Below, piece by piece: positions 30,955 through 64,000 of a stretch of 64,000 bases of DNA (positions are counted from its first letter, which is position 1; each line of letters opens with the position of its first letter). The stretch comes from Thermoleophilia bacterium (GTDB lineage: Bacteria; Actinomycetota; Thermoleophilia; UBA2241): contig JADGPQ010000001.1 of NCBI GenBank assembly GCA_017882325.1, positions 541 to 64,540 of the forward strand, written 5' to 3'. Made by a program: the position numbers and the translations under genes. The notes beneath the pieces are model-generated. The model was not told the origin of the DNA. It saw only the letters and a list, made by a program, of their open reading frames with translations, and did no database searches.

Positions 30955-31045
30955 GCCGGCATTGTATAGGACGCCGCCCGGACTGCCGACGTTCTTGCGC
31001 TCGCGGTCTGTCCAACTCCGGCGTCGGAAGGGTAGAGTGTCGGGG

Positions 31046-34981: not shown

Positions 34982-35013
34982 ACCAACCTCCGACGACACA
35001 CGGAAGGGATGCC

Positions 35014-40194: not shown

Positions 40195-40686
40195 TTGCCG
40201 TTCAGTCTCGACGCGATCGATCGCCAGATCATATCGCTCCTGTTGGAAGACGGCCGCATTTCGTCGGCCGAGATCACACGGCGTATCGGGCACGTTTCCG
40301 AGCGCGCCGTGCGCTACCGCATCGAGCGGCTGGTCCGCACGGGCGTGATCCGCATCAGCGCCATCGTCAATCCTCAGGCGGTGGGGTTCACAGTGATTGG
40401 AGACGTCCTCATCGACGTCGCTCCCGGCAAGCTGCAGGACGTGGCCGCGCAGCTCGTCGAGTTCCCGACTGTCAGCTACGTGGCCGGATCCGTCGGCGAA
40501 GGCGATCTCAGCGTGCAGGTCTACGCTCGCGACACCGAGGAGCTGCTGCGCTTCGTCAATGAAGTCATCGGCAAGGTCCCTGGGGTCACCCGCACCAAGC
40601 TCGCGATGGTGCCGTGGAAGCTCAAGGATGTCTATCAGTGGCATGTGCCTGTGGAGGCCGCCGAAGAAGGGAGGGCGATCGGCTGA
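40195..40686 (+). CDS. Lrp/AsnC family transcriptional regulator
   Basis: AsnC HTH (LDAIDRQIISLLLEDGRISSAEITRRIG) and RAM domain; TTG 40195 start inferred. Confidence 0.75.
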   Translation: MPFSLDAIDRQIISLLLEDGRISSAEITRRIGHVSERAVRYRIERLVRTGVIRISAIVNPQAVGFTVIGDVLIDVAPGKLQDVAAQLVEFPTVSYVAGSVGEGDLSVQVYARDTEELLRFVNEVIGKVPGVTRTKLAMVPWKLKDVYQWHVPVEAAEEGRAIG

Positions 40687-40777
40687 GTCGCTGCCGTTCT
40701 CGTTTGTCGTCTACCATCAACTACGGAACCGCTGGCAGGGGCAGCTCAGCGATACGTTGTGCCAGCAAGGGGGGAAT

Positions 40778-42007: not shown

Positions 42008-42071
42008 TGTAGCAGTACCGTAAGGGGCGGGAGCTCCCGCTCCCGCCCCTTCCTGTCCCTGGAGTGTGCAG

Positions 42072-43004
42072 ATGAGCAAGCTATTCTTCGTCACAGACAT
42101 TCATGGCTCCAATGTGTGCTACCGCAAGTTCCTCAACGCGCTCCCGATCTACGGCGCCGACGTCGCAGTCCTCATGGGTGACCTCACCGGCAAGGTCCTC
42201 GTGCCCCTCGTCGAGAAGGGTAACGACACCTGGGAGTGCACCCTCATGGGGCAGCACCGTGACGTGACCACCAAGGACGAGCTCGCCGACATCAAGAAGA
42301 TCATCGAGAACGCCGGCTATTACTGGGTCCACCAGACGCGCGAGGAGTTCGAGGACACGCGCAGCGACCCCGCGAAGATCGATGCGCTGTTCAAGAGCCT
42401 CGTCTTTACGCGCGTGCAGGAGTGGCTCGACCTCGCCGACGAGCGCCTCGAGGGCAAGCCGTTCCAGATGTACATGTGCCCGGGCAACGACGACTGGTTC
42501 GTCATCGATGACATGATCGACAACGCCAAGCTCGTGCACCCCTGCGACAAGCGCGTCGTGCAGATCGACAACCACGAGATGGTGACGTCGTCGGCTTCAA
42601 ACCCCACCCCATGGGATACGCCTCGAGAGATGAGCGAGGAGGACCTCGAGACGCACTACCGCGGCCTCGTCTCGCAGATCAAGAACCAGGAGACGGCGAT
42701 CTACAATTTCCACGTGCCGCCGCACGGCTACTCGCTGGACCTATGCCCCAAGCTCGACGAGAACCTCACGATGGCTGCCGAAGAGAAGATCCACGCCGGC
42801 AGCATCGGCGCCAAGAAGGTCATCGAGGAGTATCAGCCGCTGCTTGGCACCTTCGGCCACATCCACGAGTCGCGCGGCGCTCAGAAGGCCGGTCGCACGC
42901 TGCTCATCAACCCGGGCAGCGAGTACTCCGAAGGCATCCTCAAGGGCGTGATCATCATTCTCGACAAGAAGAAGGTGAAGGACTACGTCTTCACGTCCGG
43001 TTGA
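42072..43004 (+). CDS. metallophosphoesterase (calcineurin-like phosphoesterase)
   Basis: FFVTDIHGS motif I and MGDLTGK motif II of MPP superfamily; about 60% GC. Confidence 0.7.
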   Translation: MSKLFFVTDIHGSNVCYRKFLNALPIYGADVAVLMGDLTGKVLVPLVEKGNDTWECTLMGQHRDVTTKDELADIKKIIENAGYYWVHQTREEFEDTRSDPAKIDALFKSLVFTRVQEWLDLADERLEGKPFQMYMCPGNDDWFVIDDMIDNAKLVHPCDKRVVQIDNHEMVTSSASNPTPWDTPREMSEEDLETHYRGLVSQIKNQETAIYNFHVPPHGYSLDLCPKLDENLTMAAEEKIHAGSIGAKKVIEEYQPLLGTFGHIHESRGAQKAGRTLLINPGSEYSEGILKGVIIILDKKKVKDYVFTSG

Positions 43005-43059
43005 TCGGCGCGTAGACTACGGGCTTCATCGAGACGCCGATCCCGAAAGGGGGCGATAG

Positions 43060-43866
43060 ATGGGTCAGTTCATCCTGCCCAAGGATATCCCGCTCGACCG
43101 CTATCCCAAGCCCGAGGTCTTTCTGAGCGAGGGCAAGCGGATCGCCGAGGCGGCACAGCAGCAGGGCATCGTCATGCGCGTCATGGGTCCGCTGGCGCTG
43201 CACTATTACTTCCCCGACCAGATCGACCTGTACGCCAGGCTCGAGCGCCTCGGAGACCGCTACTTCACCGATATCGACTATGCGACCTACGGCAAGACGC
43301 GCAAGCATCTGGTGAAGTTCATGGAGTCGGTCGGCTACGAGTGCGACCTGCAGACCATGGCCATGACCGGCACGACCCGCCACATCTACTTCGGCGGGGC
43401 GGTGCCCATGATCGACGTCTTCATCGACAAGCTCGACTACTGCCACGAGGTCAACTACGATGGCCGGCTCGAGTCTGACCCGTGGAGCGTTTCGCTGGCC
43501 GACATCCTGCTGCAGAAGCTGCAGATCTGGGAGATCAACGATAAGGACCTCAAGGACATCGAGTACCTGTTCACGGTCGCCGACTTCGGCGAGGACGACG
43601 CCAAGAAGGTCAACGAGGGCTACATCGCCCGGCGCTTCGCCGACGACTGGGGCTTCTGGTACACCGGTACCACGAACCTCGATCGCGTGAAGGAGCATGT
43701 GGGCAACGTCGACGCCCTCAGCGACGACCAGAAGGCCAAGATCAGGCAGGTCGCCGACGAGGTGCGGGCGCGCATCGATCGGGAGCCCAAGACCAAGAAG
43801 TGGGAGAAGCGCGCCAAGAAGGGCACCAAGAAGATCTGGTACAACACCGGCTTCTCCGACTGGTGA
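43060..43866 (+). CDS. hypothetical protein (Lys-rich C-terminus; function unknown)
   Basis: 268-aa ORF with good coding periodicity and start context; no family recognised; about 60% GC. Confidence 0.45.
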   Translation: MGQFILPKDIPLDRYPKPEVFLSEGKRIAEAAQQQGIVMRVMGPLALHYYFPDQIDLYARLERLGDRYFTDIDYATYGKTRKHLVKFMESVGYECDLQTMAMTGTTRHIYFGGAVPMIDVFIDKLDYCHEVNYDGRLESDPWSVSLADILLQKLQIWEINDKDLKDIEYLFTVADFGEDDAKKVNEGYIARRFADDWGFWYTGTTNLDRVKEHVGNVDALSDDQKAKIRQVADEVRARIDREPKTKKWEKRAKKGTKKIWYNTGFSDW

Positions 43867-51331: not shown

Positions 51332-52584
51332 CCGCGCTCACCCTCGCCGAGAAGATCCTCGCGGCGCGCGCCGGCCTCGGCACGGTCGTGCCCGGGCAGA
51401 TCGTCGTGGCCGCCGTCGACGTGGCCATCGCCCAGGACGGCACGGGGCCGCTCGCCATCGAGCAGCTCGAGGCGCTCGGCGCCGCCACCGTCAAGGCGCC
51501 GACCTGCGTGTTCTTCATCGACCACGCCGCCCCGGCGCCGCGCAGCGAGCTGGCCAATGCGCAGAAGACGATCAGGGCGTTCTGCGCGTCCTCCGGCGCC
51601 ACGCTCAGCGACGTCGAGATGGGCGTCTGCCACCAGAGGGTCGCCGAGAGCTACGCACGGCCCGGCGACCTGGTCATCGGCGCCGACTCGCACACCTGCA
51701 TGGCGGGCGCCCTCGGAGCATTTGCGACGGGCATGGGCAGCACCGACGTCGCCGTCGGCATGGCCAGCGGCCAGACCTGGCTGCGCGTGCCCGAGACGTT
51801 TCGTATCGAGGTCGCCGGCGTGCTGCGCGACGGCGTCGAAGCCAAGGATCTGATGCTCACGCTGATCGGCGCCATTGGCGCCGACGGCGCCACGTACAAG
51901 GCGCTCGAGTTCGGCGGGACGGGCATCGACGTTCTGCCAATGCCCGGCCGCTTCACGCTCAGCAACATGGCGGTGGAGGCCGGCGCGAAGGCGGGCCTCA
52001 TGCCCAGCGACGACACGACGCGCGAGTTCCTCATCGGTCAGGGCCGCGAGGAGGTCTGGCGGCCGCTCGCCGCCGACCCCGGCGCCGCCTACGAGAGCGT
52101 CGTCGAGTCCGACGCCCGTGCCATCGTCCCGATGGTGGCCCGTCCGCACACGGTAGACAACACGGCGCCGGTCGCGGAGCTCAAGGGCACCAGGGTCGAC
52201 CAGGTGCTCATCGGCACGTGCACCAACGGGCGGCTTGCCGACCTGCGCTCGGCGGCGCGCCTGCTGCGCGGGCGCCGCCGAGCCTCCCACACGCGTCTCA
52301 TCGTCACGCCGGCCTCTCAGGCCGTGGCGCGAGCCGCGGCTGCGGAGGGCCTGTTCGACGTGTTCTGGGATGCCGGAGCCGTGGTCACCAACCCCGGCTG
52401 CGGCGCCTGCGTCGGCATCCACGAGGGCATCCTCGCCGACGGCGAGGTCTGCCTCAGCACCGCCAATCGCAACTTCCACGGGCGCATGGGCAACCCCGAG
52501 GCGTCCATCTATTTGGCCTCGCCGGCCACCGCGGCCGCCACGGCCGTGGCCGGCGAGATCACCGATCCCCGTGAACTGCTCTAG
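51328..52584 (+). CDS. 3-isopropylmalate dehydratase / homoaconitase large subunit (archaeal-type aconitase family)
   Basis: aconitase family Cys ligands ([26 protein letters not shown]); GTGA overlap upstream; ends TAG. Confidence 0.8.
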
Positions 52585-52597
52585 GAAGGAGGACGCC

Positions 52598-53119
52598 GTG
52601 GCCAAGCAATACGACGCGCCGCCGCCGTTGGTCATCGACCCCGCCAAGCGCTTCACCGCCACCATCAGCACCGACCAGGGCGACATCGTCATCGAGCTCT
52701 ACGCGGACAAGGCGCTCGCGACGGTCAACAACTTCGTGTTCCTGGCTCGCGAGGGCTTTTACGACGGCGTCACGTTTCATCGCGTCATCAAGGGGTTCAT
52801 GGCGCAGGGCGGCGACCCAACCGGCAGTGGCAGCGGCGGCCCCGGCTACCGCTTCGCCGACGAGTTCCACCCGGCGCTCAAGCACGACCAGCCCGGCATC
52901 CTGTCGATGGCCAACGCCGGCCCGAACACGAACGGGTCGCAGTTCTTCATCACGTACCGCGACGCGCCCCATCTCGACGGCAAACACGCCGTGTTCGGGC
53001 GCGTCATCGAAGGCATGGACGTCCTCGAGGCCATCCCCGAGCGAGACCCTACGCGCGCGCGTGAGCCCGGCCTCGCGATGAACAGCATCACGGTCCATGA
53101 GGAGGAATGGATCACGTGA
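52598..53119 (+). CDS. cyclophilin-type peptidyl-prolyl cis-trans isomerase
   Basis: [31 protein letters not shown] cyclophilin motifs; GGAAGGAGG RBS before GTG. Confidence 0.85.
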
Positions 53120-53631
53120 GCGAGGAGCTGCTACGCGGCAAGGCTTGGCTTTTCGGCGACGACATCTCCACCGACCACATCGCCCCGGGCCGCCTGTTCC
53201 ACCTACGCACCGACCTCCCCGAGCTGGCCAAGCACGTCCTCGAGGACGCACGTCCGGAGTTTGCCGCGTCTCTGGCGCCCGGCGACTTCGTCGTGGGCAG
53301 GCGCAACTTCGGCCTCGGATCCAGCCGGGAGCACGCGCCGCGTATCATCAAGCTCGCCGGCGCGGGTGCGGTGATTGCTCAGAGCTTCGCTCGTATCTTC
53401 TTCCGCAACGCCATCAACGTCGGCTTGCCCGTGCTGCAGTGCGACACGAGCGGCATCGGCGAGCAGGACGACCTCGAGGTCGTCTTGATCGCCGGCGAGG
53501 TGCGCGATCTCACGAGCGGAGCCGTCATCCCGTTCGTGCCCCTGCCGCCGGTGATGGTGACGATCTTGAACGACGGCGGCCTGGTGGCGCACGTCAAGAA
53601 GCACGGCGGCTTTGCATTGCCTCAGGGCTGA
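53107..53631 (+). CDS. 3-isopropylmalate dehydratase / homoaconitase small subunit (short archaeal type)
   Basis: aconitase swivel domain ([11 protein letters not shown]...[12 protein letters not shown]). Confidence 0.8.
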
Positions 53632-53684
53632 CCGGCCCCGCGAGGCGCCATCAGCCCGTTGAGATCCGAGACCACAGGAGCTAC

Positions 53685-54689
53685 ATGACCTTTACAGTCA
53701 CCCTGATCCCGGGCGACGGCACCGGCCCCGAGCTCGCCGCCGCCCTCGAGACCGTGATCGCCGCGACCGGCGTACCGATCCTGTGGGAAGTGCACGACGC
53801 CGGCGTGGATGTGATGAAGGAGTATGGCACGCCGCTGCCCGAGCACGTCCTCGACTCCATCCGTCGCACCAGAGTGGCGATCAAGGGACCCATCACGACA
53901 CCGGTCGGCCACGGATTTCGGAGTGTGAACGTGGCCCTGCGCAAAGAGCTCGATCTCTACGCCTGCCTGCGCCCCTCCAAGTCGATGAAGGGCGTGCGCA
54001 GCCGCTTTGAGGATATCGACCTCGTCGTCGTCCGCGAGAACACGGAAGACCTCTACGCAGGCATCGAGCACATGGTCGGCGAGGACGCGGCGGAGAGCAT
54101 CAAGATCATCACCCGCAAAGGCAGCGAACGTATCGTGCGGTTTGCCTTCGAGTACGCGCGCCGGCGCGGCCGCCGCAAGGTCACCGCCGTGCACAAGGCC
54201 AACATCATGAAGTGCACCGACGGGCTCTTTCTGCGCGTCGCCGGCGAAGTGGCCGCGCGGTACCCGGACATCGAGTTCGAGGATCGCATCGTCGACAACA
54301 TGTGCATGCAGCTCGTCCAGAAGCCGGAGCTCTACGACGTGCTGGTGCTGCCCAATCTGTACGGCGACATCGTCAGCGACCTGTGCGCCGGTCTCATCGG
54401 CGGCCTCGGCGTGGCGCCGGGCGCCAACTTCGGCGACGACATCGCCGTGTTCGAGCCCGTGCACGGCAGCGCCCCCAAGTACGCCGGCCGGGACAAGGTC
54501 AACCCCATGGCGCTGCTGCGCTCGGGCGTTCTGCTGCTCGAGCATCTCGGCGAGGACGCCGCGGCGCGCCGCATGGAGGACGCCATCGCGGCCGTCGTCG
54601 CCGAGGGCAAGGACGTGACCTACGACCTGGGCGGCACGGCCGGCACCAGCAGCATGGCCGCCGCCATCGCACGCCGCATCCAAAGTTAG
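53685..54689 (+). CDS. homoisocitrate/isocitrate/3-isopropylmalate dehydrogenase family (Thermus HICDH-like NAD enzyme)
   Basis: [52 protein letters not shown]; ends TAG. Confidence 0.8.
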
Positions 54690-54730
54690 CGCGCCGCCCG
54701 CCCGCCGGGCGCGCCCGCAAAGGAGGCTTC

Positions 54731-55021
54731 ATGGAGGAGCAAGAGAAGCACATCAACCTGCACGCCACCCCTGAGATGATGGCGGGCGTCTACGCCAACT
54801 TCGCCAACGTCAGCCACTCGGACTACGAGTTCTCGATCACGTTCGTGCGCCTCGACCATGAGAGTGAGGAGCCGGGCGAGATGCAAGGCGTTGTCGTCAG
54901 CCGCGTCAACCTCTCGGCGCGCTTCCTCAAGGAACTGCTCGACGCCATGGCCGACAATTACAGCAAGTGGCAGGCCGCCGAGAACATCAGAGACCTGCCG
55001 GAGGCGCCGGGCCGCGATTAG
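54731..55021 (+). CDS. DUF3467-like small protein
   Basis: GVYANFANVSHSDYEFSITF signature; AAAGGAGG RBS. Confidence 0.6.
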   Translation: MEEQEKHINLHATPEMMAGVYANFANVSHSDYEFSITFVRLDHESEEPGEMQGVVVSRVNLSARFLKELLDAMADNYSKWQAAENIRDLPEAPGRD

Positions 55022-55343: not shown

Positions 55344-57122
55344 TTGGATTTCTACCAAGGCAAAGTGCTCAAGATCGACCTGAGCGCGGGCACTGCCATC
55401 GTCGAGCCGCTCAACATGGAGTGGGCGGAGTTGTACATCGGCGGCAAGGGCCTCATGCTGCGCTACCTGTGGGAGCTCACCGAGCCTGGCCTCGACCCAT
55501 GGTCACCTGACAACCCCTTCATCGTGGCCACCGGCCCCTTCGCCGGCACAAACGTCAGCACGTGTTCGCGCGTCGTCATCGGCGGCAAGAGCCCGGCCTC
55601 GGGCACCATGCTCGACAGCTACATGGGCGGCTCGTTTGGTTCCATCCTCAAGTTCGCCGGCTACGACATGGTCATCGTCCAGGGCCTGGCGCCGCAGCTC
55701 AGCACCATCCTCATCAAGGACGACGTCGTCACCCTCGCCCCCTGCCCCGCGTACACGGGCATGAAGACGTCCGAGATCGAAGCGGCTCTGCGCGCCGACT
55801 TCGACGCGAAGATGACCGCCATCAGCATCGGCCCGGCCGGCGAGAGCAAGCTGCCGTGGGCCTGCATCTCCAACGACCAGTATCACAAGGCCGGGCGAGG
55901 CGGCACGGGCGCGCTGCTGGGCTCCAAGAACGTGAAGGCCATCGCCGTTGCCGGCACCGGCAAGGTCACCGTCGGCGACGCCAAGGCGTTCCTCGACGAC
56001 ATCGAGCGCATGGACGCCGACTACATCCTCACGGACGACAACTACTGGGTTCACGAAGAAGGCACGCCCATCCTCGTCGGCATCACCAGTGGCGCGGGGT
56101 GCCAGCCGGTGCGCAACTTCTCGGAGGGTACCAATCCGGACGTCGAGAACATCGACTCCGAGGCCTTCCAGAAGATCCGCGTCAAGAAGCGCGCCTGTTA
56201 CCAGTGCACGCTCGCCTGTCGCAACTTCCACCGCGTCGAGGGCGCCGAAGGCGAAGGCCCGGAGTACGAGACCATCGCGCTCTGCGGCGCCAACGTCGGC
56301 GTCGGTGACATCGACGCGCTGATGAAGTTCAACATCGAATGCGACGAATGGGGCCTCGACACGATCTCCACCGGCAACGTTCTCGGCCTCGCGATGGACA
56401 TGACCGAGAAGGGCATCCACGACTTTGGCGTGCGCTTCGGCGATCTCGATGCCTACCTCAAGGTGCCCGAGCAGCTCGCGACTCGCAGCGGTATCGGCGC
56501 CGAGCTGGCGATGGGTGCCAAGGCCCTTGCCGAGAAGCACGGGTGCCCCGAGCTCGCCATGCATTCCAAGAACCTCGAGATGCCCGGCTACGACCCGCGC
56601 GGCTCGTTCGGGATGAGCATCGCTTACGCGAGCTCGGATCGCGGCGGCTGCCACATGCGCTCGTTCCCCATCGGCGTCGAGGTCGTCGAGGGCAGCATGC
56701 CGGCCGATACGCTGGACTCGAGCAAGGTCGTGTGGAACATCGACTTCCAGAATCACTACGCCTTCAAGTTCTGCGGCATCTGGTGCGACTTCTGGGCCAT
56801 CGACTACGACCAGATGACGCAGCTCATGAAGCACCTCTGGAAACGCGACGTGACCGAGGACGAGCTCAAGGTCGTCGGCGAGCGGGTCTGGAACCTGGGG
56901 CGCCTGTACAATCTGCGCGAAGGCACCGAGAAGAAAGACGATTTCGTGCCCAAGGCGATGCTCGAAAAGCCCTTCACCACCGGCGTCTCCGCCGGCAAGG
57001 TCATCGGCAGCGAGCGCTTCGCCAAGGTAATGGACGAGTACTACGCGACGCGTGGCTGGGACGAGAACGCAGTGCCCACCGAAGACAAGCTCCGGCAACT
57101 CGGCATCGACGTGCGGCTCTGA
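55344..57122 (+). CDS. aor: tungsten-containing aldehyde:ferredoxin oxidoreductase (AOR family)
   Basis: N-terminal FYQGKVLKIDLSAGT...IGGKGL AOR domain 1, C-terminal AOR domains with Cys ligands (CYQCTLACRNFH); AGGAGGA RBS 4 nt before TTG 55344. Confidence 0.85.
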   Translation: MDFYQGKVLKIDLSAGTAIVEPLNMEWAELYIGGKGLMLRYLWELTEPGLDPWSPDNPFIVATGPFAGTNVSTCSRVVIGGKSPASGTMLDSYMGGSFGSILKFAGYDMVIVQGLAPQLSTILIKDDVVTLAPCPAYTGMKTSEIEAALRADFDAKMTAISIGPAGESKLPWACISNDQYHKAGRGGTGALLGSKNVKAIAVAGTGKVTVGDAKAFLDDIERMDADYILTDDNYWVHEEGTPILVGITSGAGCQPVRNFSEGTNPDVENIDSEAFQKIRVKKRACYQCTLACRNFHRVEGAEGEGPEYETIALCGANVGVGDIDALMKFNIECDEWGLDTISTGNVLGLAMDMTEKGIHDFGVRFGDLDAYLKVPEQLATRSGIGAELAMGAKALAEKHGCPELAMHSKNLEMPGYDPRGSFGMSIAYASSDRGGCHMRSFPIGVEVVEGSMPADTLDSSKVVWNIDFQNHYAFKFCGIWCDFWAIDYDQMTQLMKHLWKRDVTEDELKVVGERVWNLGRLYNLREGTEKKDDFVPKAMLEKPFTTGVSAGKVIGSERFAKVMDEYYATRGWDENAVPTEDKLRQLGIDVRL

Positions 57123-57152
57123 CAGCCGGCTCGCGGAAGGAAGGGATCGCAG

Positions 57153-57650
57153 ATGCCCCACGTCATGATCAGCAACAAGAAGTGCACCGGCTGCCACATG
57201 TGCGAGCTGGGCTGCTCGGCATTTCACGAGGGCGGGTTTCAACCCTCGCTGGCTCGGCTCTTCACGGATGTCAACCCCACGACGGCCGTGATCAAGGGTC
57301 ATTCGTGCCTGCAGACCGCCTGCGCCAAGTGCCAGGAGGCCTGTCCGGAGGACGCCATTGTGACCAGGCAGATCACCGTGAAGCCGGCGGGCGAGTTCAG
57401 CAGCAGGGAGAAGAACGGCGATACGGTCACCGGCTTCGTCCTGATCGTGGACGAGTCCAAGTGCACGAACTGCGGCGATTGCTACGAGGTCTGCCCGTAC
57501 GACGTCATCCATGAGCACCCCGCCCGCGAAGTCGCGTTCAAGTGCGATCTGTGCGATGGCGACCCGCAGTGCATCGCCTTCTGCCAGAACAAGTACGTCC
57601 TCGCCGTCGATCTCAAGCTCGACAAGAAAGATAAGGAACTGCGGGCCTGA
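57153..57650 (+). CDS. 4Fe-4S ferredoxin-domain electron-transfer subunit (AorA-like)
   Basis: four CxxCxxCxxxCP-type clusters (CTGCHMC, CAKCQEACP, CTNCGDCYEVCP, CDLCDGDPQC). Confidence 0.8.
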   Translation: MPHVMISNKKCTGCHMCELGCSAFHEGGFQPSLARLFTDVNPTTAVIKGHSCLQTACAKCQEACPEDAIVTRQITVKPAGEFSSREKNGDTVTGFVLIVDESKCTNCGDCYEVCPYDVIHEHPAREVAFKCDLCDGDPQCIAFCQNKYVLAVDLKLDKKDKELRA

Positions 57651-57652
57651 CG

Positions 57653-57922
57653 ATGGCCACGGCTTACGTCAAGCTCCCGGTCGGCATGACCACCGCGGCC
57701 GGTGAACGCGCGGTCCAGTGCCAAGCCGCTACTGTGGCCGAAGCGCTCGAGCAGGCCGTCGCCGTCGAACCGCGGCTCAAGCCGCGCATCTTTCGCGATG
57801 ACGGGCGCATGTGGGCCGGCGTGTTCCTCAATGCCCGCAACATCAACGCGCTCCAGGGTCTCGAGACGCCGCTCAGCGACGGCGACAAGCTCGCCGTGGT
57901 GCCGCCCATCTCGGGTGGCTGA
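57653..57922 (+). CDS. MoaD/ThiS family sulfur-carrier protein (AorD-like)
   Basis: 89 aa, beta-grasp, C-terminal GG. Confidence 0.75.
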   Translation: MATAYVKLPVGMTTAAGERAVQCQAATVAEALEQAVAVEPRLKPRIFRDDGRMWAGVFLNARNINALQGLETPLSDGDKLAVVPPISGG

Positions 57923-57958
57923 AGCGAGTTTCCGACGCCGGCGCAGATGACCGACCAC

Positions 57959-57986
57959 GGGGCGGGCGCCGTACGGCGCCCGCCCC
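57959..57986 (+). terminator. perfect 12-bp hairpin GGGGCGGGCGCC-GTAC-GGCGCCCGCCCC after aor operon
   Basis: seen directly; no U tract (typical for high-GC). Confidence 0.5.
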
Positions 57987-58017
57987 GTCGCTGTCGCGTT
58001 CTGGTACCATCTCGCGC

Positions 58018-58680
58018 ATGAACATCGACGCCGCCAGACGACAGCTTGCCGAAGCGGGGCTCCAGAGCGCCGTCGGCGGCCGCGCCAGCGTTCGCCGTTT
58101 CCTCCCCGACCCCGTCCCACGGGAGGACGTGACGACGATGGTCGAACTGGCGGTGCGTGCGGCCAACGCCGGCAACGCCCAGATGTGGAGGTTCGTTGCC
58201 GTGGACGACGCGGTCACGCAGGTCGCGATGCGTCAGGCCGTCGACGACGCCATCGACGAGATGGCCGCCTGGCCGCAACTCGCCGGCAGCAGCAAAGAGA
58301 TCAAGGCCCTACGGGCCTACGCGACGTTCTTTGTGGACGCGCCGCTGGTGATGGCCGTGTTCGGCCTGCCCTACCTCTCTCGCGCCGACGAGATGCTGCT
58401 CGCCCGCGGTCTCAGCACGGAGGAGCGCGACAGGCTGCGCGCGCGCCCGGACCTGCAGAGCATCGGCGCCGCCGTCCAGCTCTTCTGTTCGGCGGCGCAC
58501 GCCTTGGGCTACGGCTCGTGCTGGATGACGGCCCCCGTACTCGCGGCGCCCGGCATCGAAGGGCTGCTTGGCGTGGAGCCTCCGGCCAGGCTGGTCGCCG
58601 TCGTGCCCGTCGGGCGGCCCGCGGGAGCCGTCAATCCCACGTCACGGCGACCGGTCGGCGAGGTGCTCGAGTTCCGCTGA
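58018..58680 (+). CDS. nitroreductase family protein
   Basis: RSVRRFLPDPVPREDV N-terminus and GYGSCWM motif of NADH oxidase/nitroreductase fold. Confidence 0.7.
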   Translation: MNIDAARRQLAEAGLQSAVGGRASVRRFLPDPVPREDVTTMVELAVRAANAGNAQMWRFVAVDDAVTQVAMRQAVDDAIDEMAAWPQLAGSSKEIKALRAYATFFVDAPLVMAVFGLPYLSRADEMLLARGLSTEERDRLRARPDLQSIGAAVQLFCSAAHALGYGSCWMTAPVLAAPGIEGLLGVEPPARLVAVVPVGRPAGAVNPTSRRPVGEVLEFR

Positions 58681-58689
58681 GCGGCCACG

Positions 58690-59787
58690 GTGAAGGGGAG
58701 GAACTCCTTGATCCACGCAGCAAATGACGTCCGCGACCTCTGTCGCCGCGCGCTCGCCGGTGGCCTGCTCGAAGAGGCCGACCTCGTGACGCTCCTCTCT
58801 GCCCGCGGCGATGCCGCCGAGGTCCTGTTCGCCGCGGCGCGCGAGGTTCGCGCCCGGCGTTTCGGCGCCGTGGTCTTTCTCTACGGTTTCGTGTACTTCT
58901 CGACCTACTGCCGCAACGAGTGCGCCTTCTGCTTCTACCGCGTCGACAACGACGAGAGCCCGCGCTATCGCAAGTCCCTGGACGAGGTCGTCTCCATCTG
59001 CCGCGACCTCGCGGGCTCCGGGGTCGTCCTGCTCGACCTCACCATGGGCGAAGACCCGGTCATCCACGACGACCCCGGCTACGCCGGACTTCTCGAGCTC
59101 GTCGCGGCCGTGTGCGACGGTGGCGGGCTACCGGTCATGGTCTCGCCGGGCGTTGTGCCCGACGAGGTGCTCGCAGGTCTCCGTGCCTGCGGCGCGGACT
59201 GGTACGCGTTGTACCAGGAGACGCACAGTCCGGAGCTGTACGAGCGCCTGCGGACCGGGCAGTCGTTCGCGGCGCGGATCGCCGCGCGCCGCGCGGCTCG
59301 GCGCGCCGGTCTGCTCGTCGAGGACGGCATCCTCACGGGTATCGGCGACACGGAGGCAGACCGCGCCCGTTCCATCGCGGCGATGCGCGAGGCCGCCTGG
59401 GAGCAGGTCCGGGTCATGACGTTCGTGCCGCAGGTGGGCACGCCGCTGGCCGATGTGCGGCCGGCCGCAGACGAGGCCGAGCTGCTCGCCATCGCGGCGA
59501 TGCGTCTGGCCATGCCCCGTTCTCTGATCCCGGCGTCTCTCGACGTCGACGGCATCCGCGGTCTCGAGCGGCGCCTGAACGCGGGCGCCAACGTGGTGAC
59601 CTCCATCGTGCCACCGATCGTCGGCCTGGCCGGCGTGTCGCAGGCCGAGCTCGACATCGACGAGGGGCGCCGGACGGTGGCGGAAGTGCTGCCGCACCTC
59701 GCACGGCTGGGGCTCCGCTCGGGGACGGTCACCGAGTATCGCGCCTGGCTCGCTGCGGCGCACGAGGGCGTCGAGGTCCCGGCGTGA
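58690..59787 (+). CDS. pylB: radical SAM enzyme PylB-like (3-methylornithine synthase, lysine mutase)
   Basis: near-collinear match to Methanosarcina PylB: FVYFSTYCRNECAFCFY, LDLTMGEDP, ALYQETHSPELYERLRTGQSF, VEDGILTGIGDT, VRVMTFVPQVGTPL, LIPASLDVDGIRGLERRLNAGANVVTSIVPP; start GTG 58690 or TTG 58708 (GGGGAGG RBS). Confidence 0.85.
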   Translation: MKGRNSLIHAANDVRDLCRRALAGGLLEEADLVTLLSARGDAAEVLFAAAREVRARRFGAVVFLYGFVYFSTYCRNECAFCFYRVDNDESPRYRKSLDEVVSICRDLAGSGVVLLDLTMGEDPVIHDDPGYAGLLELVAAVCDGGGLPVMVSPGVVPDEVLAGLRACGADWYALYQETHSPELYERLRTGQSFAARIAARRAARRAGLLVEDGILTGIGDTEADRARSIAAMREAAWEQVRVMTFVPQVGTPLADVRPAADEAELLAIAAMRLAMPRSLIPASLDVDGIRGLERRLNAGANVVTSIVPPIVGLAGVSQAELDIDEGRRTVAEVLPHLARLGLRSGTVTEYRAWLAAAHEGVEVPA

Positions 59788-61028
59788 GACTCCTGGTCGT
59801 CGGCGGCAAGCTGCAGGGTACCGAGGCCGTCTACCTGGCGGCGAAGGCCGGCTGGGAGACCGTTCTCGTCGACCGCCGGGAGGCTGCTCCGGCAGCGGGG
59901 CTCGCCGACCGACACGTGGTAGCGGACATCGTCGCCCACGACTCCCTCGCGAAGACATTGGTCAGCGCCTGCGACGCCGTGTTGCCGGCCTGCGAAGACC
60001 TGGGGACGCTGGAGTGGCTCGCTGAACGCGTGCCAGCCTGGGGCGTCCCCCTTCTCTTCGACCTCGACGCATACCGCGTCAGCGAGTCCAAGCTGGCCTC
60101 GCTGAGGCTGTTCGAGGCACTCGATGTGTCGCGGCCCGTCCCGTGGCCGGCCTGCGGCTTTCCGGCGGTCGTGAAGCCCGACTCGGCGAGCGGCAGTGAG
60201 GGCGTGTCAGTGGTCGAGGACGAAGCCGAGCTCTCGGCCGCGCTCGCGTGCCTCGCGGCCGGAGGGCACCGGCCGGTGGTCGAGGAATACGTCGCCGGGC
60301 CGTCCCTATCGCTCGAGGTGCTGGCCTGGGACGGCAACGCCGTCCCGCTGCAGATCACCGGCTTGGAGTTCGACGCCCTCTACGACTGCAAGCGCGTCGT
60401 GGCGCCGGTCGGCGAGGCCGAGGCCGGAGGGCCTTCGGCCGCCGGCCCCGCCGGCCCGGGCGCGTGGGCTCACGCCGTCGCGCCTGGCACGCTTGCGGGC
60501 TTCGCCGACGCGGCCGCGCGTCTCGCGGCCGGCCTGGGCCTGAACGGGCTGATGGACGTGGAGGTGATGGTGCGCGGTCTCGAGCCCAAGGTGCTCGAGA
60601 TCGACGCTCGCCTCCCGAGCCAGACGCCGACCGCGGTGTACTGGTCCAGCGGGCTCAACATCGTCGAGCTGCTACTCGAGACGGTTCGCTGCGGCGCCCT
60701 CCCACTGGTCGACCGCAGGTCGCGCCGCGCTTGTGTCTACCAGCACGTCCATGCTCACGATGGTTTGCTGGAGGTCGCCGGCGAGCATGTGATGGGGAGC
60801 GCAGCACCTCTGCAGCTGGTGGAAGGCTTCTTCGGCGTGGACGAAGCACTCACCGACTATCGTCCCGGAGCGCGCGCTTGGGCGGCCACGTTGATCGCCA
60901 CGGGCGCGGACGTCGAAGGGGCCCAGGCGGTGGCCGACGAGGCCACGAGGGAGCTGTCGCGCTGCGAGAGGCTCGACCTGATCCTCGAGTCTGAGAGACT
61001 GGCGCGTACAGAGGCGACGAGGCCGTGA
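59784..61028 (+). CDS. pylC: ATP-grasp ligase PylC-like (3-methylornithine--L-lysine ligase)
   Basis: LVVGGKLQGTEAVYLAAKAG, FDLDAYRVSESK, SLEV, and LKVLEIDARLPSQTPTAVYWSSGLNIVELL match PylC; GTGA overlap with pylB. Confidence 0.85.
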   Translation: MRLLVVGGKLQGTEAVYLAAKAGWETVLVDRREAAPAAGLADRHVVADIVAHDSLAKTLVSACDAVLPACEDLGTLEWLAERVPAWGVPLLFDLDAYRVSESKLASLRLFEALDVSRPVPWPACGFPAVVKPDSASGSEGVSVVEDEAELSAALACLAAGGHRPVVEEYVAGPSLSLEVLAWDGNAVPLQITGLEFDALYDCKRVVAPVGEAEAGGPSAAGPAGPGAWAHAVAPGTLAGFADAAARLAAGLGLNGLMDVEVMVRGLEPKVLEIDARLPSQTPTAVYWSSGLNIVELLLETVRCGALPLVDRRSRRACVYQHVHAHDGLLEVAGEHVMGSAAPLQLVEGFFGVDEALTDYRPGARAWAATLIATGADVEGAQAVADEATRELSRCERLDLILESERLARTEATRP

Positions 61029-61831
61029 CAAGACTCACCGCAGAAGAAGTGACAACGCTCACCGACCGGTTGGGCGAGTTCGAGGCCGGGCTCAGGGAGA
61101 TCACCGGCCTCGGGCTGCGCGAGCTCGCCATGAGGACGGTCGCGCATCCGCCGGTCTGCGTGCCCCTCTACGGCGCGCGCGTGGCGGCGGTGCCGGTTAC
61201 CAGTGGAGAGGGCGTCATCCGTGGTTTCAGCGACTGCGTGGGGGCGATCCTCCGCCATCTCGGCTGCGACGCCTGGGTGACGGCGCAGCCCGACCTACGC
61301 GGCGTACAGGAGGCGTACGACGGGGCGGCGGAGGTGGTCTTCCTCGCCGATGACTTTCGTTTCGTCGCCCTGAACACTGGTGAGCGTCGCTGCGTGGACA
61401 ACGACCCGGCCACGGCCGACGGCTACGCGACCGCGCTCGAGGCGGCGGCCGGCAGCCTCCTCAGCCGGCACGTCCTTCTTCTCGGGCTCGGTCCAGTCGG
61501 CCGCGGGGCCGCGCGGCGTCTGGTGAGCCGCGGCGCCGCGGTCGAGGTCGTGGAGCCCGACCGGGCGCGACTTCGCGCCGCGCTCGACGTCGGGCTCAAG
61601 CTGCAGCCGGTGACGCTTGCCGACGGTCTCGAGCGCTGCGACCTCATCTTCGACGCCACTCCTTCCGGAGGCTTCATCGATGCCGGCGACGTGACCCCCT
61701 TCACCGTCGCGGCCGTCCCGGGCCTTCCGTCCGCCTTCACTCCGGCTGCCCAGGCCGCGCTCGGCGCGCGTCATATCCACGAGCCGCTGGCCGTCGGCGT
61801 CGCCGTCATGGTGGCACGGGCCCTCGTCTGA
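61025..61831 (+). CDS. pylD: PylD-like dehydrogenase (3-methylornithyl-N6-lysine dehydrogenase, pyrrolysine synthase)
   Basis: AAVPVTSGEGVI, VVFLADDFRFVALN, LLLGLGPVG, IFDATPSGG, AAVPGLPSAF, IHEPLAVGVAVM match PylD; GTGA overlap with pylC. Confidence 0.85.
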   Translation: MTRLTAEEVTTLTDRLGEFEAGLREITGLGLRELAMRTVAHPPVCVPLYGARVAAVPVTSGEGVIRGFSDCVGAILRHLGCDAWVTAQPDLRGVQEAYDGAAEVVFLADDFRFVALNTGERRCVDNDPATADGYATALEAAAGSLLSRHVLLLGLGPVGRGAARRLVSRGAAVEVVEPDRARLRAALDVGLKLQPVTLADGLERCDLIFDATPSGGFIDAGDVTPFTVAAVPGLPSAFTPAAQAALGARHIHEPLAVGVAVMVARALV

Positions 61832-61873
61832 GAGGTCCCACGTCTCTGCCGCGCGGCTGCCGGCGCGCCGTTG

Positions 61874-61879
61874 TAGAAT
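61874..61879 (+). promoter_or_regulatory. -10-like TAGAAT (TTGTAGAATC) 10 nt upstream of tRNA-Pyl 5' end
   Basis: same 10-mer TTGTAGAATC occurs at 17507-17516 upstream of M42 peptidase gene. Confidence 0.35.
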
Positions 61880-61889
61880 CATGGCGTGC

Positions 61890-61962
61890 GGGGGGTCGAT
61901 CGGAAGGATCAGCGTGGGCTCTAAACCCACGTAGGCGGGTGTGACTCCCGCACTCCCCGCCA
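61890..61962 (+). tRNA. pylT: tRNA-Pyl (amber suppressor, anticodon CUA), CCA encoded
   Basis: manual fold: acceptor GGGGGGT/ACTCCCC (one G-U), single nt before D arm, D stem GATC/GATC with 5-nt loop, 6-bp anticodon stem CGTGGG/CCCACG, loop CTCTAAA, 3-nt variable loop TAG, T arm GCGGG-TGTGACT-CCCGC, discriminator G; all atypical features match known tRNA-Pyl. Confidence 0.85.
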
Positions 61963-62037
61963 CTCACGTCTCCGGCGCGGACGGGCGTGGCGCGGCGAGC
62001 GGCCGGAGCTGTGCACGGGCGCCACGCGGGAGGGGAC

Positions 62038-62489
62038 ATGGTCGAGGACCGCAAGGAGCGCGTCGACCGCGAGCTCATCGAGCTGCTCAACGAGATCCGC
62101 GTCGTCCTGCCTGGGGCCCAGGTGCTGTTCGCCTTCCTGCTCAGCCTCCCGTTCCTGGCCCGTTTCGATCTGCTCACGCGGATCGATCGTGATGCTTACT
62201 ACGCCGCCTTCCTCTGCACAGCGGTGGGACGATCATATCGATGGCGCCTTCCGCGAATCATCGGCTGCGCTTTCGCGAATCCGACAAGGAACCGATGCTC
62301 CTCTGGTTCAACAGGCTGGTCCTGGTCGGCTCGGCATTCCTGGCCGCGGCGATCGCATTGGCCGTCTTCGTGGTGACGGACATGCTCTTCGACCAAAGCG
62401 CGGCGGCACTCCTGGCGGCGCTCATCGCCGCCTGGGTCGTGATCGTGTGGTACTTGGCGCCGCTCTGGCAGCGGCACTCCGCGGAGTAG
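62038..62489 (+). pseudogene. actinobacterial conserved membrane protein (DUF6328-like) disrupted by a 1-nt frameshift
   Basis: two ORFs (61987-62376 and 62241-62489) together reconstruct one family-like protein (ELLNEIRVVLPGAQVLFAFLLSLPF ... APSANHRLRFRESDKE ... VFVVTDMLF); frames switch near 62224-62232 within a GGTGGG run. Confidence 0.5.
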
Positions 62490-62529
62490 CCGCCGCGGAT
62501 CTACGCTGCCACCGACGCGGGCGGCGCCG

Positions 62530-63447
62530 TCAGTCCGACGAGAACGTTACGGGGATGCGGACTTCGTTCTGGCGTGAGCCGTCCTCCATCGACTGGCTGT
62601 AGACGATGAGCGCACCGCTCTGTGCCGTCGTGCTGAACGAGACCGTCGTGCGGAAGCGTCCGCGCCCGGGCGCGCCGGCGAACGCCTGCACCTGCCTGCG
62701 GACGAGGCTGTGGCCGGCGGCGTCGACGAGCCGTGCCGCGAAACTGCCCTCGAAGACGCTGGCCGTCCCGTTGAGCGCGAAGGGGCTGGACAGCACTGCG
62801 CCGACGCCGGGGGTCTCGACGAAGATGGCGGGCTCGAAGGCGCGCCAGTCGGCGCGCGACTGCTTGGCGAGGATCAGACCGAGGTCGCTGCCCGGCGCGA
62901 TCTCGACGAGGCCTCCGGCAAGCGTGATGTCCACGGCCCTGATCGTGGGGAACCGGGTGAGCGTGTAGACGACCTGCGCGACGCGCTCCTGCCACGAGAG
63001 GTCGCTGCCGCCCGCGACGAAGCGCCCAGGGAGGTCGACCCGCGCAGTCGTGCCGTCGATAGAGAGGCCGAGGAGGCGGACCCCGGTCGGCACGGCGCTC
63101 GTCAGGCCGGCGGCCTGCTCGGCTGCCGTGGGGCCGGTGAGCAGGGCCTTCAGCGCCGCCGTCGCCGGCATCGTGGTCTGCGGGACGCGACGCTGCGCTG
63201 AGCCGAGCTTGCCGCCGCGCAGGAAGTACAGGGAAATCGTGGTCGCAGGCTGCGGGGTGGCCGTGGGCGCCGTCGTGGGACTTGGAGATGCCGAGGGTGT
63301 CGGCGTCACGGTCACGGTGGCCGTGGGGGCGGGCGATGAGCCGCCGGAGGAGTCGCCACAGGCGGCCAGCCCGGCGGCCGCCAGCGCGCTCGCAACGGCC
63401 AGCACCAGCGTCGTCCGCGCGAATCTGGATGTGGCACGTCGTCTCAT
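62530..63447 (-). CDS. lipoprotein with GerMN / Gmad2-like domains
   Basis: signal peptide plus lipobox LAAC, low-complexity Pro/Thr/Ser linker, GerMN-like C-terminal region. Confidence 0.6.
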   Translation of the reverse strand: MRRRATSRFARTTLVLAVASALAAAGLAACGDSSGGSSPAPTATVTVTPTPSASPSPTTAPTATPQPATTISLYFLRGGKLGSAQRRVPQTTMPATAALKALLTGPTAAEQAAGLTSAVPTGVRLLGLSIDGTTARVDLPGRFVAGGSDLSWQERVAQVVYTLTRFPTIRAVDITLAGGLVEIAPGSDLGLILAKQSRADWRAFEPAIFVETPGVGAVLSSPFALNGTASVFEGSFAARLVDAAGHSLVRRQVQAFAGAPGRGRFRTTVSFSTTAQSGALIVYSQSMEDGSRQNEVRIPVTFSSD

Positions 63448-63564
63448 GTTCCACCTCGAGTCGTCACGCGTCTGACTTCACCTTTCGCCGCCGCCGATGC
63501 GGCCTCCTGCCGCCGACCTGCGCGGTCCGACGCGCTCCCCGGCCGTGCTACACTCGCACTCCCC

Positions 63565-63891
63565 ATGCCCACCGACCCCAACAAGGCGCGGTACTACCGC
63601 AAACAGGTCCCGCTCTTCCGCCTCGTCGACAAGCTCAAGCTGTGGCCGTCGCGGCGCGGCATCCTCCACGGCATCAAGGAGTTCGACGAGCGCGGCTCCT
63701 ACGCCGTGGTGATCACCCACTGCAACAAGCGCATGGTGGTGCACGACTCCAAGAAGAGCCGCGCCGCACGCTGGCTGCGCAACAAGTGGTACGCGGAAGC
63801 CTGCCCGAAGTGCCGCATTCCCGAGTGGAAACTGCAGAAGTACGCGGCGACGCACTTCAAGCGCGGCTACGGCTCGCATTTGCACGACTGA
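63565..63891 (+). CDS. pylSn: PylSn (N-terminal tRNA-Pyl-binding domain of split pyrrolysyl-tRNA synthetase)
   Basis: LWPSRRGILHGIKEF...HCNKRMVVHDSKKSRAARWLRNKWYAEACPKCRIPE matches PylRS N-domain (LWMSRTGTIHKIKHH...SRTARALRHHKYRKTCKRCRV), Zn-binding Cys/His conserved; 108 aa. Confidence 0.8.
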   Translation: MPTDPNKARYYRKQVPLFRLVDKLKLWPSRRGILHGIKEFDERGSYAVVITHCNKRMVVHDSKKSRAARWLRNKWYAEACPKCRIPEWKLQKYAATHFKRGYGSHLHD

Positions 63892-64000
63892 TCGGCGTCA
63901 AAGCAGCCGCCAGCTTTCGGGCCGCAGCTGGACGGACTCGGGCGCGAGCAGGACCTTGTCGAGCGCGACGAGCAGGGCCTGCTTGTCCTGCGGCAGCCGC

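Follow-up and report, generated by a model that had tools for sequence, protein, structure and literature searches.

In the 64,000-nucleotide stretch of DNA analysed here (the window), we identified genes for pyrrolysine (Pyl) biosynthesis (pylB, pylC and pylD), the tRNA-Pyl gene pylT, and pylSn, which encodes one subunit of a split pyrrolysyl-tRNA synthetase (PylRS) of the bacterial type (Table 1). The order of genes is pylB-pylC-pylD-pylT, one or two unrelated genes, pylSn and a radical-SAM gene. In a syntenic relative (locus L001) these are followed by a corrinoid-protein gene and by pylSc, the gene of the catalytic PylRS subunit, on the opposite strand; these last two lie off the window and their placement is taken from the relative. 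Two genes lie between pylT and pylSn in the window, a DUF6328 gene that is frameshifted and, on the minus strand, a gene for a lipoprotein. The GTG starts of pylC and pylD overlap the stop codons of pylB and pylC, respectively (GTGA at 59784 and 61025); both overlaps, given in the initial annotation as signs of translational coupling, are present in the sequence.

Table 1. Features of the pyrrolysine locus (positions are those of the window)
Feature	Product or role	Position	Strand	Evidence
pylB	methylornithine synthase (radical SAM lysine mutase)	58708..59787	+	TIGR03910, PDB 3T7V, record P0001
pylC	3-methylornithine--L-lysine ligase (ATP-grasp)	59784..61028	+	TIGR03909, Pfam PylC-like_N, PDB 4FFL
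pylD	3-methylornithyl-N6-lysine dehydrogenase (pyrrolysine synthase)	61025..61831	+	TIGR03911, Pfam PylD_N, PDB 4J43/4Q39
-10-like hexamer TAGAAT	putative dedicated pylT promoter	61874..61879	+	conserved island in spacer
pylT	tRNA-Pyl, anticodon CUA, G73 discriminator, encoded CCA	61890..61962	+	ARAGORN, fold
pylSn	small tRNA-binding subunit of split bacterial pyrrolysyl-tRNA synthetase	63565..63891	+	TIGR03912, PDB 5UD5/5V6X
radical-SAM gene	3' end, cut by window edge	63898..64000	-	tblastn with L001 radical-SAM protein

In pyrrolysine biosynthesis, PylB converts L-lysine to (3R)-3-methyl-D-ornithine, PylC joins this compound to another lysine through the epsilon-amine of the latter, and PylD oxidises the PylC product, which then cyclises to pyrrolysine. 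The proteins encoded in the window were compared with the Pyl-specific profiles listed in Table 1, using the NCBI curated equivalog thresholds as cut-offs. PylB scored 442 bits (cut-off 348; profile positions 3-347 of 347), as against 107 and 75 bits with the paralogous HydE and BioB models. The scores were 337 bits for PylC (cut-off 248; next-best family PurT-like, 42 bits), 190 bits for PylD (cut-off 150; next-best family 26.5 bits) and 126 bits for PylSn (cut-off 51). Moreover, PylC and PylD matched the Pfam families PylC-like_N and PylD_N, the latter with 92 bits. The three enzymes had been named PylB, PylC and PylD in the initial annotation, which proposed weighing them by HMM search against competing families; in every case the Pyl-specific models scored far higher than those of BioB/HydE, generic ATP-grasp enzymes or dehydrogenases.

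Solved structures, all of them archaeal proteins, led to the same families. The best PDB match of PylB was the Methanosarcina barkeri enzyme (E = 4e-87, residues 16-354 aligned), in which YCKNQCSFCYY is aligned to the CxxxCxxC motif of the window protein (YCRNECAFCFY). PylC matched a single PDB entry, 4FFL (E = 2e-45), in two blocks; the roughly 34 residues between them (207-240) are unaligned, and the window protein has 414 aa compared with 363 aa in the solved enzyme. Residues 2-264 of PylD matched the PylD structures (E = 5e-29), and PylSn matched the 109-residue chains of entries entitled ‘Pyrrolysine--tRNA ligase’ (E = 1e-11), its Cys and CxxC residues being aligned. Since all four proteins exceed Pyl-specific cut-offs and have PylB, PylC, PylD and the N-terminal domain of PylRS as their best or only strong structural matches, their family identity is established. 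On sequence grounds, PylB, PylC and PylD are pyrrolysine biosynthesis enzymes with the corresponding predicted activities. The pylB reading frame has an alternative GTG start at 58690 (ORF 58690-59787); a public record of 359 aa (P0001), 100% identical to the window PylB, begins six codons later, at the TTG at 58708, with AAGGGGAGG just before it.

The initial annotation had placed a tRNA-Pyl gene downstream of pylD, and ARAGORN independently called tRNA-Pyl (anticodon CTA) there, the spacer measuring 58 nt and not the 59 nt first given. The structural hallmarks of tRNA-Pyl are the CUA anticodon, acceptor and D stems that are one base apart, a D-loop of 5 nt, a 6-bp anticodon stem, a 3-nt variable loop and the lack of T54-Ψ55-C56 (PMC1851642). 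According to the ARAGORN call and the fold, the window tRNA has these hallmarks: one nucleotide (C8) separates the acceptor stem from the 4-bp D stem, the D-loop is GGAAG, the anticodon stem has 6 bp and a possible seventh G·U pair (leaving a variable region of 2-3 nt), and the T-loop, UGUGACU, is devoid of TΨC. The D-loop contains a GG dinucleotide, the first position of which is either G or A in the relatives. The identity elements of bacterial PylRS are G73, G1·C72, G10·C25, A11·U24, G8, U54·A58 and a purine at position 57 (PMC1851642), all of which occur in the window tRNA except for G8, which is replaced by C. The Desulfitobacterium hafniense tRNA carries G8, and its change to C lowers the efficiency of aminoacylation 8-fold in that system (PMC1851642). 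C8 is invariant throughout the clade of relatives and may have co-evolved with their PylRS.

In 25 loci from 25 species, 70 of the 73 positions of tRNA-Pyl are invariant, whereas the flanking DNA is merely 70-75% identical, and the window tRNA equals the clade consensus at all positions. The few differences include replacement of G23·U43 by G-C in several relatives and a C26·A40 mismatch in the anticodon stem of 5 of the 25; variation is too limited for a covariation test. As judged from this conservation, tRNA-Pyl is under strong purifying selection. The spacer upstream of pylT has a mean column identity of 50% in the same 25 loci, and its only conserved island (invariant G-T-A..A-T) is the -10-like hexamer TAGAAT (clade consensus TACAAT), situated 10 nt upstream of the mature 5' end of the tRNA. 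The position and conservation of this hexamer point to a putative pylT promoter; a simple two-hexamer promoter scan returned no match for one.

The presence of pylSn, also proposed in the initial annotation, is supported by public data. The protein belongs to a 90%-identity cluster of 311 members, and 14 of the 40 members examined are named (e.g. ‘pyrrolysyl-tRNA synthetase-like protein’); another name in the cluster is ‘pyrrolysine--tRNA(Pyl) ligase small subunit [Thermoleophilia bacterium]’. The window ends 109 nt past this gene, and tblastn gave no match to PylSc within it. In about 27 syntenic loci from metagenome-assembled genomes (MAGs) of Thermoleophilia, pylSc lies approximately 1.9 kb beyond pylSn, on the minus strand, beside the gene of a methyltransferase-cognate corrinoid protein. 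The PylSc of locus L001 scored 321 bits with TIGR02367 (cut-off 178) and the adjoining corrinoid protein 217.1 bits with TIGR02370 (cut-off 215.3). Among solved structures, this PylSc is closest to that of D. hafniense (3DSQ/2ZNI; E = 1e-94, residues 14-286); archaeal PylRS chains gave 198-236 bits with the PylSc of the clade, compared with 320 bits for the bacterial chain. The species-representative genome collection contains 36 PylSc loci, of which 35 are bacterial.

The reading frame cut by the window edge was recognised by tblastn, in which residues 260-292 of the L001 radical-SAM protein matched positions 63999-63901 at 85% identity. We regard this gene as a conserved synteny marker; its presence at the edge implies that the corrinoid-protein gene and pylSc should follow off the window. 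We infer that pylSc lies just past the edge, on the minus strand, beside the corrinoid-protein gene, and the Pyl system of this organism would then be complete, as it appears to be in its relatives. The 64 kb examined contain neither PylSc nor client genes, and the neighbouring DUF6328 gene is frameshifted (local decay or an assembly error), as might be expected of a decaying or incomplete remnant that kept pylBCD, pylT and pylSn, lost pylSc or the clients, and no longer expands the code. This is improbable, given that the four ORFs are intact and above their equivalog cut-offs, the coupled GTGA overlaps have been retained, and the tRNA does not deviate from the clade consensus. Moreover, synteny extends right up to the window edge and reaches the gene that precedes the corrinoid-protein gene and pylSc in the relatives, and the window stops short of the expected pylSc position.

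The actinobacterial host suggested in the initial annotation proved to be right. Contigs of MAGs, most of which are titled ‘uncultured Thermoleophilia bacterium’, show synteny with the window (70-84% nucleotide identity), and the entire segment that begins with IDH and ends with the radical-SAM gene is conserved in about 27 contigs, some as long as 2 Mb. Two related loci bear other labels (L016, ‘Deltaproteobacteria’; L032, ‘Zixibacteria’), and the similarity of the clade's PylSc to the enzyme of a Firmicute, D. hafniense, could likewise be taken to mean that the locus is mis-binned or foreign DNA (from a Firmicute or a deltaproteobacterium, or gained by recent horizontal transfer) and the actinobacterial host an artefact. 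Such an origin is very improbable: GC content stays at 0.62-0.73 over the entire window and does not shift at the pyl genes, which share the window with housekeeping genes (ArgRS, GatA/B) and occur in the same order between such genes in the Thermoleophilia contigs. Since L032 is 82% identical at the nucleotide level to the housekeeping genes of the window, the mistake more probably lies in the odd labels. Wherever the genes first came from, their conserved position speaks for vertical descent within the clade.

No Pyl-containing methyltransferase had been seen in the window, and our scans agree with this: no TAG-interrupted coding ORF was found there, tblastn gave no match to the dimethylamine methyltransferase MtbB or to the corrinoid protein, and Pfam scans of 49 window ORFs revealed no methylamine methyltransferase, corrinoid or PylSc families. 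Clients occur in clade members. L015 encodes a full-length MtbB with one in-frame TAG (PF09505, 555 bits, profile positions 4-462 of 463); the gene shares a contig with the pyl genes and is some 9 kb away from pylSc. Four more MtbB copies, in L038 and L039 (tied to the clade by similar GC content only), have TAG at the same DG[LY]-TAG-[VA]G[AT]GD site, and most of the at least 120 clusters of MtbB homologues listed are called at 344 aa, stopping at that TAG. TAG is also an ordinary stop, ending about 17-20% of genes, with no enrichment of backup stops behind it. It follows that suppression has to be partial, regulated or context-limited, which is also the view taken of other Pyl bacteria.

Directly upstream of pylBCD, with a gap of 27 nt, lies an AOR-ferredoxin-ThiS-nitroreductase block, which may be co-transcribed with these genes. 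This arrangement, and the absence of a client gene nearby in the window, could suggest that the enzymes make free pyrrolysine or a related lysine-derived metabolite for non-translational use, the proximity of pylT being incidental. We consider this extremely improbable, since the tRNA is under strong purifying selection, both PylRS subunits belong to the same conserved locus, and the clade has MtbB genes with a conserved in-frame TAG. Moreover, the pyl genes are kept in three relatives in which the AOR block is missing.

Taken together, these observations show that the locus is a real pyrrolysine system of the bacterial, split-PylRS type, and its sequence features indicate that it is most likely functional. 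We assign a probability of roughly 0.88 to the reading that the window comes from the chromosome of an uncultured bacterium of the Thermoleophilia (Actinomycetota) and carries most of such a system, which decodes UAG in methylamine methyltransferases. In the mechanism we propose, PylB, PylC and PylD (identified by homology), translated from coupled genes, would successively make pyrrolysine out of two lysines, while pylT would yield an amber-suppressor tRNA-Pyl(CUA) from its own -10-like element. PylSn would bind this tRNA, with the off-window PylSc as its probable catalytic partner, and Pyl-tRNA would read the single in-frame UAG of methylamine methyltransferases (MtbB in clade members). Methyl groups would thus be stripped from dimethylamine and trimethylamine onto the corrinoid protein and passed on, presumably, to tetrahydrofolate (THF), for which the window encodes Fhs, FolD and 5-formyl-THF cyclo-ligase.

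The system shares with the D. hafniense-type cassette the three biosynthetic enzymes, a CUA tRNA-Pyl with G73 and G1·C72, a PylRS divided between pylSn and pylSc (the latter seen in relatives) and the retention of TAG as a normal stop. It differs in its host, an actinobacterium of about 69% GC, and in its organization: in the D. hafniense-type cassette, with the order pylT, pylSc, pylB, pylC, pylD, pylSn, pylT does not follow pylD, whereas here it does, pylSn stands apart and pylSc, as seen in relatives, is on the opposite strand. With archaeal systems (Methanosarcina pylTSBCD and the ΔPylSn type of Methanomassiliicoccales) it has in common the biosynthetic chemistry, the tRNA architecture and, in clade members, an MtbB with a Pyl codon as client. 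In archaea, PylRS is usually a single fusion of both parts or has no N-terminal domain (PMC9630628). The physiology would also differ from methanogenesis, consisting probably in bacterial oxidation or assimilation of methyl groups via THF.

Pyrrolysine use is mostly discussed for methanogens and a few Firmicutes and Deltaproteobacteria. The initial annotation had considered the gene combination to be confined to Methanosarcinales, Methanomassiliicoccales and a few such bacteria, a view that is outdated, as Actinobacteria were already known to have it. Of the 81 bacterial genomes encoding PylRS in the survey of Guo et al. (2022, PMC9630628), two were those of Actinobacteria, and Ellenbogen et al. 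(2023, PMC10805028) reported that Actinobacteriota MAGs express Pyl-encoding mttB and mtbB, with RBG-16-64-13, apparently the Actinobacteriota representative, as one of the three bacterial genera most active in methylotrophy. Those MAGs, from Stordalen Mire, belong to the same phylum as our organism, and TAG-truncated methylamine methyltransferase genes are likewise found in members of its clade; the study screened mtxB genes only, with no mention of pylS or pylB, and the present locus adds the biosynthesis and decoding side. Moreover, NCBI already names pyrrolysine proteins in Thermoleophilia, and at least 30 loci of the species-representative collection titled Thermoleophilia, Actinomycetes or Actinomycetota carry the system.

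A more far-reaching interpretation, which we regard as unlikely, is that these Thermoleophilia of soils and sediments, a large clade in which the genes are inherited vertically and to which at least 30 loci of the species-representative collection and over 120 PylB clusters (90% identity) belong, constitute a major reservoir of bacterial pyrrolysine decoding that has been under-appreciated, possibly with ambiguous reading of UAG throughout the genome. It draws on the apparently simple promoter of pylT, the location of pylBCD behind constitutive-looking metabolic genes and the absence of backup stops. With expression under loose control, UAG would be read ambiguously across the genome and the bacteria would tolerate this, and Pyl might then occur outside methyltransferases (e.g. 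in C-terminal extensions, or in AOR-ferredoxin read-through fusions in some members).

To conclude, the Pyl system of the window is of textbook composition and already annotated in public databases, and its value lies in ecology and cataloguing. The GC-rich PylRS/tRNA-Pyl pair (C8, G73) may interest engineers of genetic code expansion. On sequence evidence, uncultured high-GC Thermoleophilia that live in soils and sediments and form a broad clade with shared synteny appear to have the full system together with Pyl-dependent dimethylamine methyltransferases, which bears on the question of who consumes methylamines, themselves substrates of methanogens, in terrestrial anoxic habitats.

The four ORFs that the initial annotation had named pylB, pylC, pylD and pylSn were scored against NCBIfam models with curated cut-offs, and Pfam was also scanned. 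All four exceeded the cut-offs of their pyrrolysine (Pyl)-specific models, as the annotation had proposed, and the families suggested there as possible better matches scored far lower (HydE 107, BioB 75, PurT-type ATP-grasp 42 and dipicolinate synthase 26.5 bits). Pfam added matches to PylC-like_N and PylD_N. Comparison with solved structures gave the same assignments: PylB matched Methanosarcina barkeri PylB (3T7V, E = 4e-87), with which it shares the radical-SAM CxxxCxxC motif at aligned positions, PylC had PylC 4FFL (E = 2e-45) as its sole match, PylD matched 4J43/4Q39 (E = 5e-29), and PylSn resembled 5UD5/5V6X, chains of 109 residues titled “Pyrrolysine--tRNA ligase”, in an alignment that matches up the Cys and CxxC residues. 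Both GTGA start/stop overlaps, between pylB and pylC and between pylC and pylD, are present in the sequence, as described earlier. In an identical public protein record (P0001, 100% identity, 359 aa, from the 65,637-nt NCBI contig), PylB starts at TTG 58708, upstream of which lies AAGGGGAGG, a Shine-Dalgarno-like motif. We consider pylB, pylC, pylD, pylT and pylSn to be correctly identified, with a probability of about 0.97.

Features of the pyl region and of other parts of the window
Feature	Position	Strand	Remarks
5-formyl-THF cyclo-ligase	12677-13288	-	
Glycosyltransferase ORF	29929-31647	-	longest ORF
LarC-type nickel-insertion gene	30920-32311	+	
Fhs (formate-THF ligase)	32472-34211	+	
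FolD	34741-35871	+	
Three successive ORFs	40397-43866	+	536, 312 and 268 aa
PylB	58690-59787	+	TIGR03910, 442 bits (cut-off 348)
PylC	59784-61028	+	TIGR03909, 337 bits (cut-off 248)
PylD	61025-61831	+	TIGR03911, 190 bits (cut-off 150)
TANNAT hexamer	61874-61879		TAGAAT
tRNA-Pyl (pylT)	61890-61962		ARAGORN, anticodon CTA
DUF6328 gene	62038-62489	+	PF19853, in two frames
Lipoprotein-like ORF	62501-63454	-	
PylSn	63565-63891	+	TIGR03912, 126 bits (cut-off 51)
Radical-SAM gene, 3' end	63898-64000	-	conserved; copy in related locus L001 at 14707-15585 (-), 292 aa

The tRNA-Pyl gene was recovered independently by ARAGORN as one of two tRNAs in the window. Its 73 nt have a predicted fold energy of -36.7 kcal/mol, and the fold comprises a 7-bp acceptor stem (including a G5·U wobble), a single nucleotide (C8) followed by a 4-bp D stem (GAUC/GAUC) with a 5-nt D-loop, an anticodon stem of 6 bp with a possible seventh G·U pair, and a variable region of 2-3 nt. 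The T-loop (UGUGACU) is devoid of TΨC and retains U54·A58 and purine 57; the 3' end carries discriminator G73 and an encoded CCA. Herring et al. 2007 (PMC1851642) give these non-canonical features as those of tRNA-Pyl. In a permissive Rfam search (E ≤ 1) pylT did not match the general tRNA model, and the scan of positions 57000-64000 returned zero matches. Across 25 related loci 70 of the 73 positions are invariant, compared with just 70-75% identity in the neighbouring DNA, which indicates strong purifying selection; the sequences vary too little to be tested for covariation. The lone conserved island in the spacer upstream of pylT in these loci is a TANNAT hexamer, found in the window 10 nt 5' of the mature tRNA end, which suggests a putative dedicated pylT promoter. 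A simple scan revealed no two-hexamer sigma-70 promoter, and the two terminator-like sites detected equal the number expected from shuffled sequence.

Two further genes lie between pylT and pylSn. The DUF6328 gene matches PF19853 in different frames (profile positions 2-62 at 62038-62229 and 68-142 at 62241-62486) and is either a pseudogene with a frameshift near 62230-62240 or intact but for an indel of the assembly there. In most relatives this stretch has no alignment to the window. The lipoprotein-like ORF, unrelated to Pyl, keeps its position in the aligned relatives. It has no Pfam or NCBIfam match at E ≤ 0.001, and its orthologue in L001 (a related locus on a 947-kb contig, with PylB 80% identical to that of the window) contains Germane and Gmad2 domains.

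GC content is uniformly high throughout the window (2-kb values of 0.62-0.73) and shows no step at the pyl region. The best 120 database clusters of PylB homologues all fall at 72-89% identity, one of them being titled [quoted passage not shown], and the 311-member cluster of the window PylSn includes a [quoted passage not shown]. The gene order in L001, where pylT was likewise called by ARAGORN, is gatB, homocitrate synthase-like, aconitase, IDH, DUF3467, aldehyde:ferredoxin oxidoreductase (AOR), ferredoxin, ThiS, nitroreductase, pylB, pylC, pylD, pylT, lipoprotein (-), pylSn, radical SAM (-), corrinoid protein, tRNA-synt_2d protein (-), amidase and bacA. The tRNA-synt_2d protein is PylSc (TIGR02367, 321 bits, cut-off 178); used as a query over one genome per species, it retrieved 36 loci, of which more than 30, at 70-89% identity, are titled as Thermoleophilia, Actinomycetes or Actinomycetota MAGs, mainly of the “MFD” series. 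About 27 of the loci are collinear with positions 52-64 kb of the window, with the AOR-nitroreductase block missing in three. This shared order and these titles bear out the actinobacterial-like host proposed initially, and we are confident that the host belongs to the Thermoleophilia. Thermoleophilia-type pyl loci also occur on contigs labelled “Zixibacteria” (CAVTJJ010000002.1) and “Deltaproteobacteria” (JBLMXT010000180.1), the former with 82% nucleotide identity to the window housekeeping genes at 52001-55017; both labels probably reflect mistakes in binning or labelling.

The PylSc of L001 is nearest to that of Desulfitobacterium hafniense (3DSQ/2ZNI, E = 1e-94), with archaeal PylRS chains behind, and the corrinoid protein narrowly exceeds its model cut-off (TIGR02370, 217.1 against 215.3 bits). 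When the L001 proteins were used as tblastn queries, neither of these two matched within the window. The radical-SAM gene, placed in L001 between pylSn and the corrinoid-protein gene, encodes a protein whose sole matches, to the radical-SAM half of B12-binding radical-SAM methyltransferases, are weak; its last 33 residues are 85% identical to positions 63901-63999 (-), so synteny extends to the final base of the window. Judging from the order in relatives, pylSc should start about 1.9 kb past pylSn, which would put it outside the window, close to the contig end or past it. We infer the presence of PylSc in this genome from that synteny.

No credible coding ORF interrupted by TAG turned up when the window was searched, in agreement with the initial view that no Pyl methyltransferase is encoded there. 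In a related locus (L015), about 9 kb separate pylSc from a 463-codon ORF that contains a single internal TAG and scores 555 bits against Dimeth_Pyl (PF09505), covering profile positions 4-462 of 463. With its N-terminal 344 residues as query, most of the 120 clusters listed (62-100% identity) are called at 344 aa, which shows that gene callers halt at that TAG. Two long contigs (L038 and L039, GC 0.69-0.70) carry two copies each, split into 344 aa and about 100-112 aa and adjoining an ABC transporter; the TAG stands at DG[LY]-TAG-[VA]G[AT]GD in all four copies. By sequence, these ORFs are the expected, predicted Pyl-dependent dimethylamine methyltransferase. The Pyl system is almost certainly functional in the lineage, and, to judge by its relatives, the organism studied here is likely to decode UAG as Pyl in methylamine methyltransferases.

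According to a crude GC3-based gene caller, TAG terminates 10 of 49 genes in the window and 79 of 459 (17%) over the clade loci, with no sign of TAG avoidance. Backup stops were not enriched either, the next in-frame stop lying at a median of 41 codons after TAG and 42 after TGA. Both results fit regulated or inefficient UAG suppression, as is held to occur in other Pyl bacteria. TAG is the stop codon of AOR in 11 of 22 relatives; in eight of these (L009, L010, L013, L015, L020, L027, L031 and L034) the ferredoxin ORF follows in frame. Programmed UAG read-through from AOR into ferredoxin was considered and rejected: the eight loci have essentially one 12-nt, Shine-Dalgarno-containing spacer, GAAGGGAATCCG, pointing to a single shared origin, the other loci are out of frame or use TAA or TGA, and the window itself (57120-57153) has a TGA stop and a 30-nt in-frame spacer. 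The AOR-TAG-ferredoxin junction thus looks like shared ancestry.

Elsewhere the window carries ordinary chromosomal genes (ArgRS, GatA/GatB, FeoB, trehalose synthesis, ABC transporters and regulators). A THF C1 gene set, 20-25 kb upstream of pylB, would fit a role in oxidising methyl groups derived from corrinoid; its part at 32472-39737 (+) also encodes a NuoE-like 2Fe-2S protein and a 1,055-aa NuoE/NuoF-like/Pyr_redox_2 fusion. The three successive ORFs, with no Pfam match, have the lowest GC of the window (0.62-0.63 versus about 0.68-0.71 elsewhere), the first showing unusually low first-codon-position GC, and may constitute an acquired island. The LarC-type gene overlaps a long N-terminal extension of the glycosyltransferase ORF, whose true start is probably much further in.

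In composition and inferred mechanism the system is the same as the bacterial split-PylRS Pyl system. It differs in the placement of pylT after pylBCD, in the unrelated genes between pylSn and pylSc, and in the location of pylSc on the opposite strand beside the corrinoid gene; moreover, about 34 residues of the window PylC are unaligned with PylC 4FFL, position 8 of the tRNA-Pyl is C and not G, and the host is a high-GC actinobacterium. The initial statement that Pyl is otherwise confined to methanogens and a few Firmicutes and Deltaproteobacteria is outdated, since actinobacterial hosts are already on record: a passage of Guo et al. 2022 counts two Actinobacteria in 81 PylRS-encoding bacterial genomes (PMC9630628; repeated in PMC11764691), and Ellenbogen et al. 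2023 reported expression of Pyl-encoding mttB and mtbB by Actinobacteriota MAGs and ranked RBG-16-64-13 with the most active methylotrophic bacterial genera, pylS and pylB going unmentioned (PMC10805028). In the literature on pyrrolysine in Thermoleophilia, Actinomycetota and RBG-16-64-13 we found no account of a clade-wide syntenic pyl locus. The pyl locus of Thermoleophilia is therefore unsurprising to the specialist, under-described and ecologically interesting.
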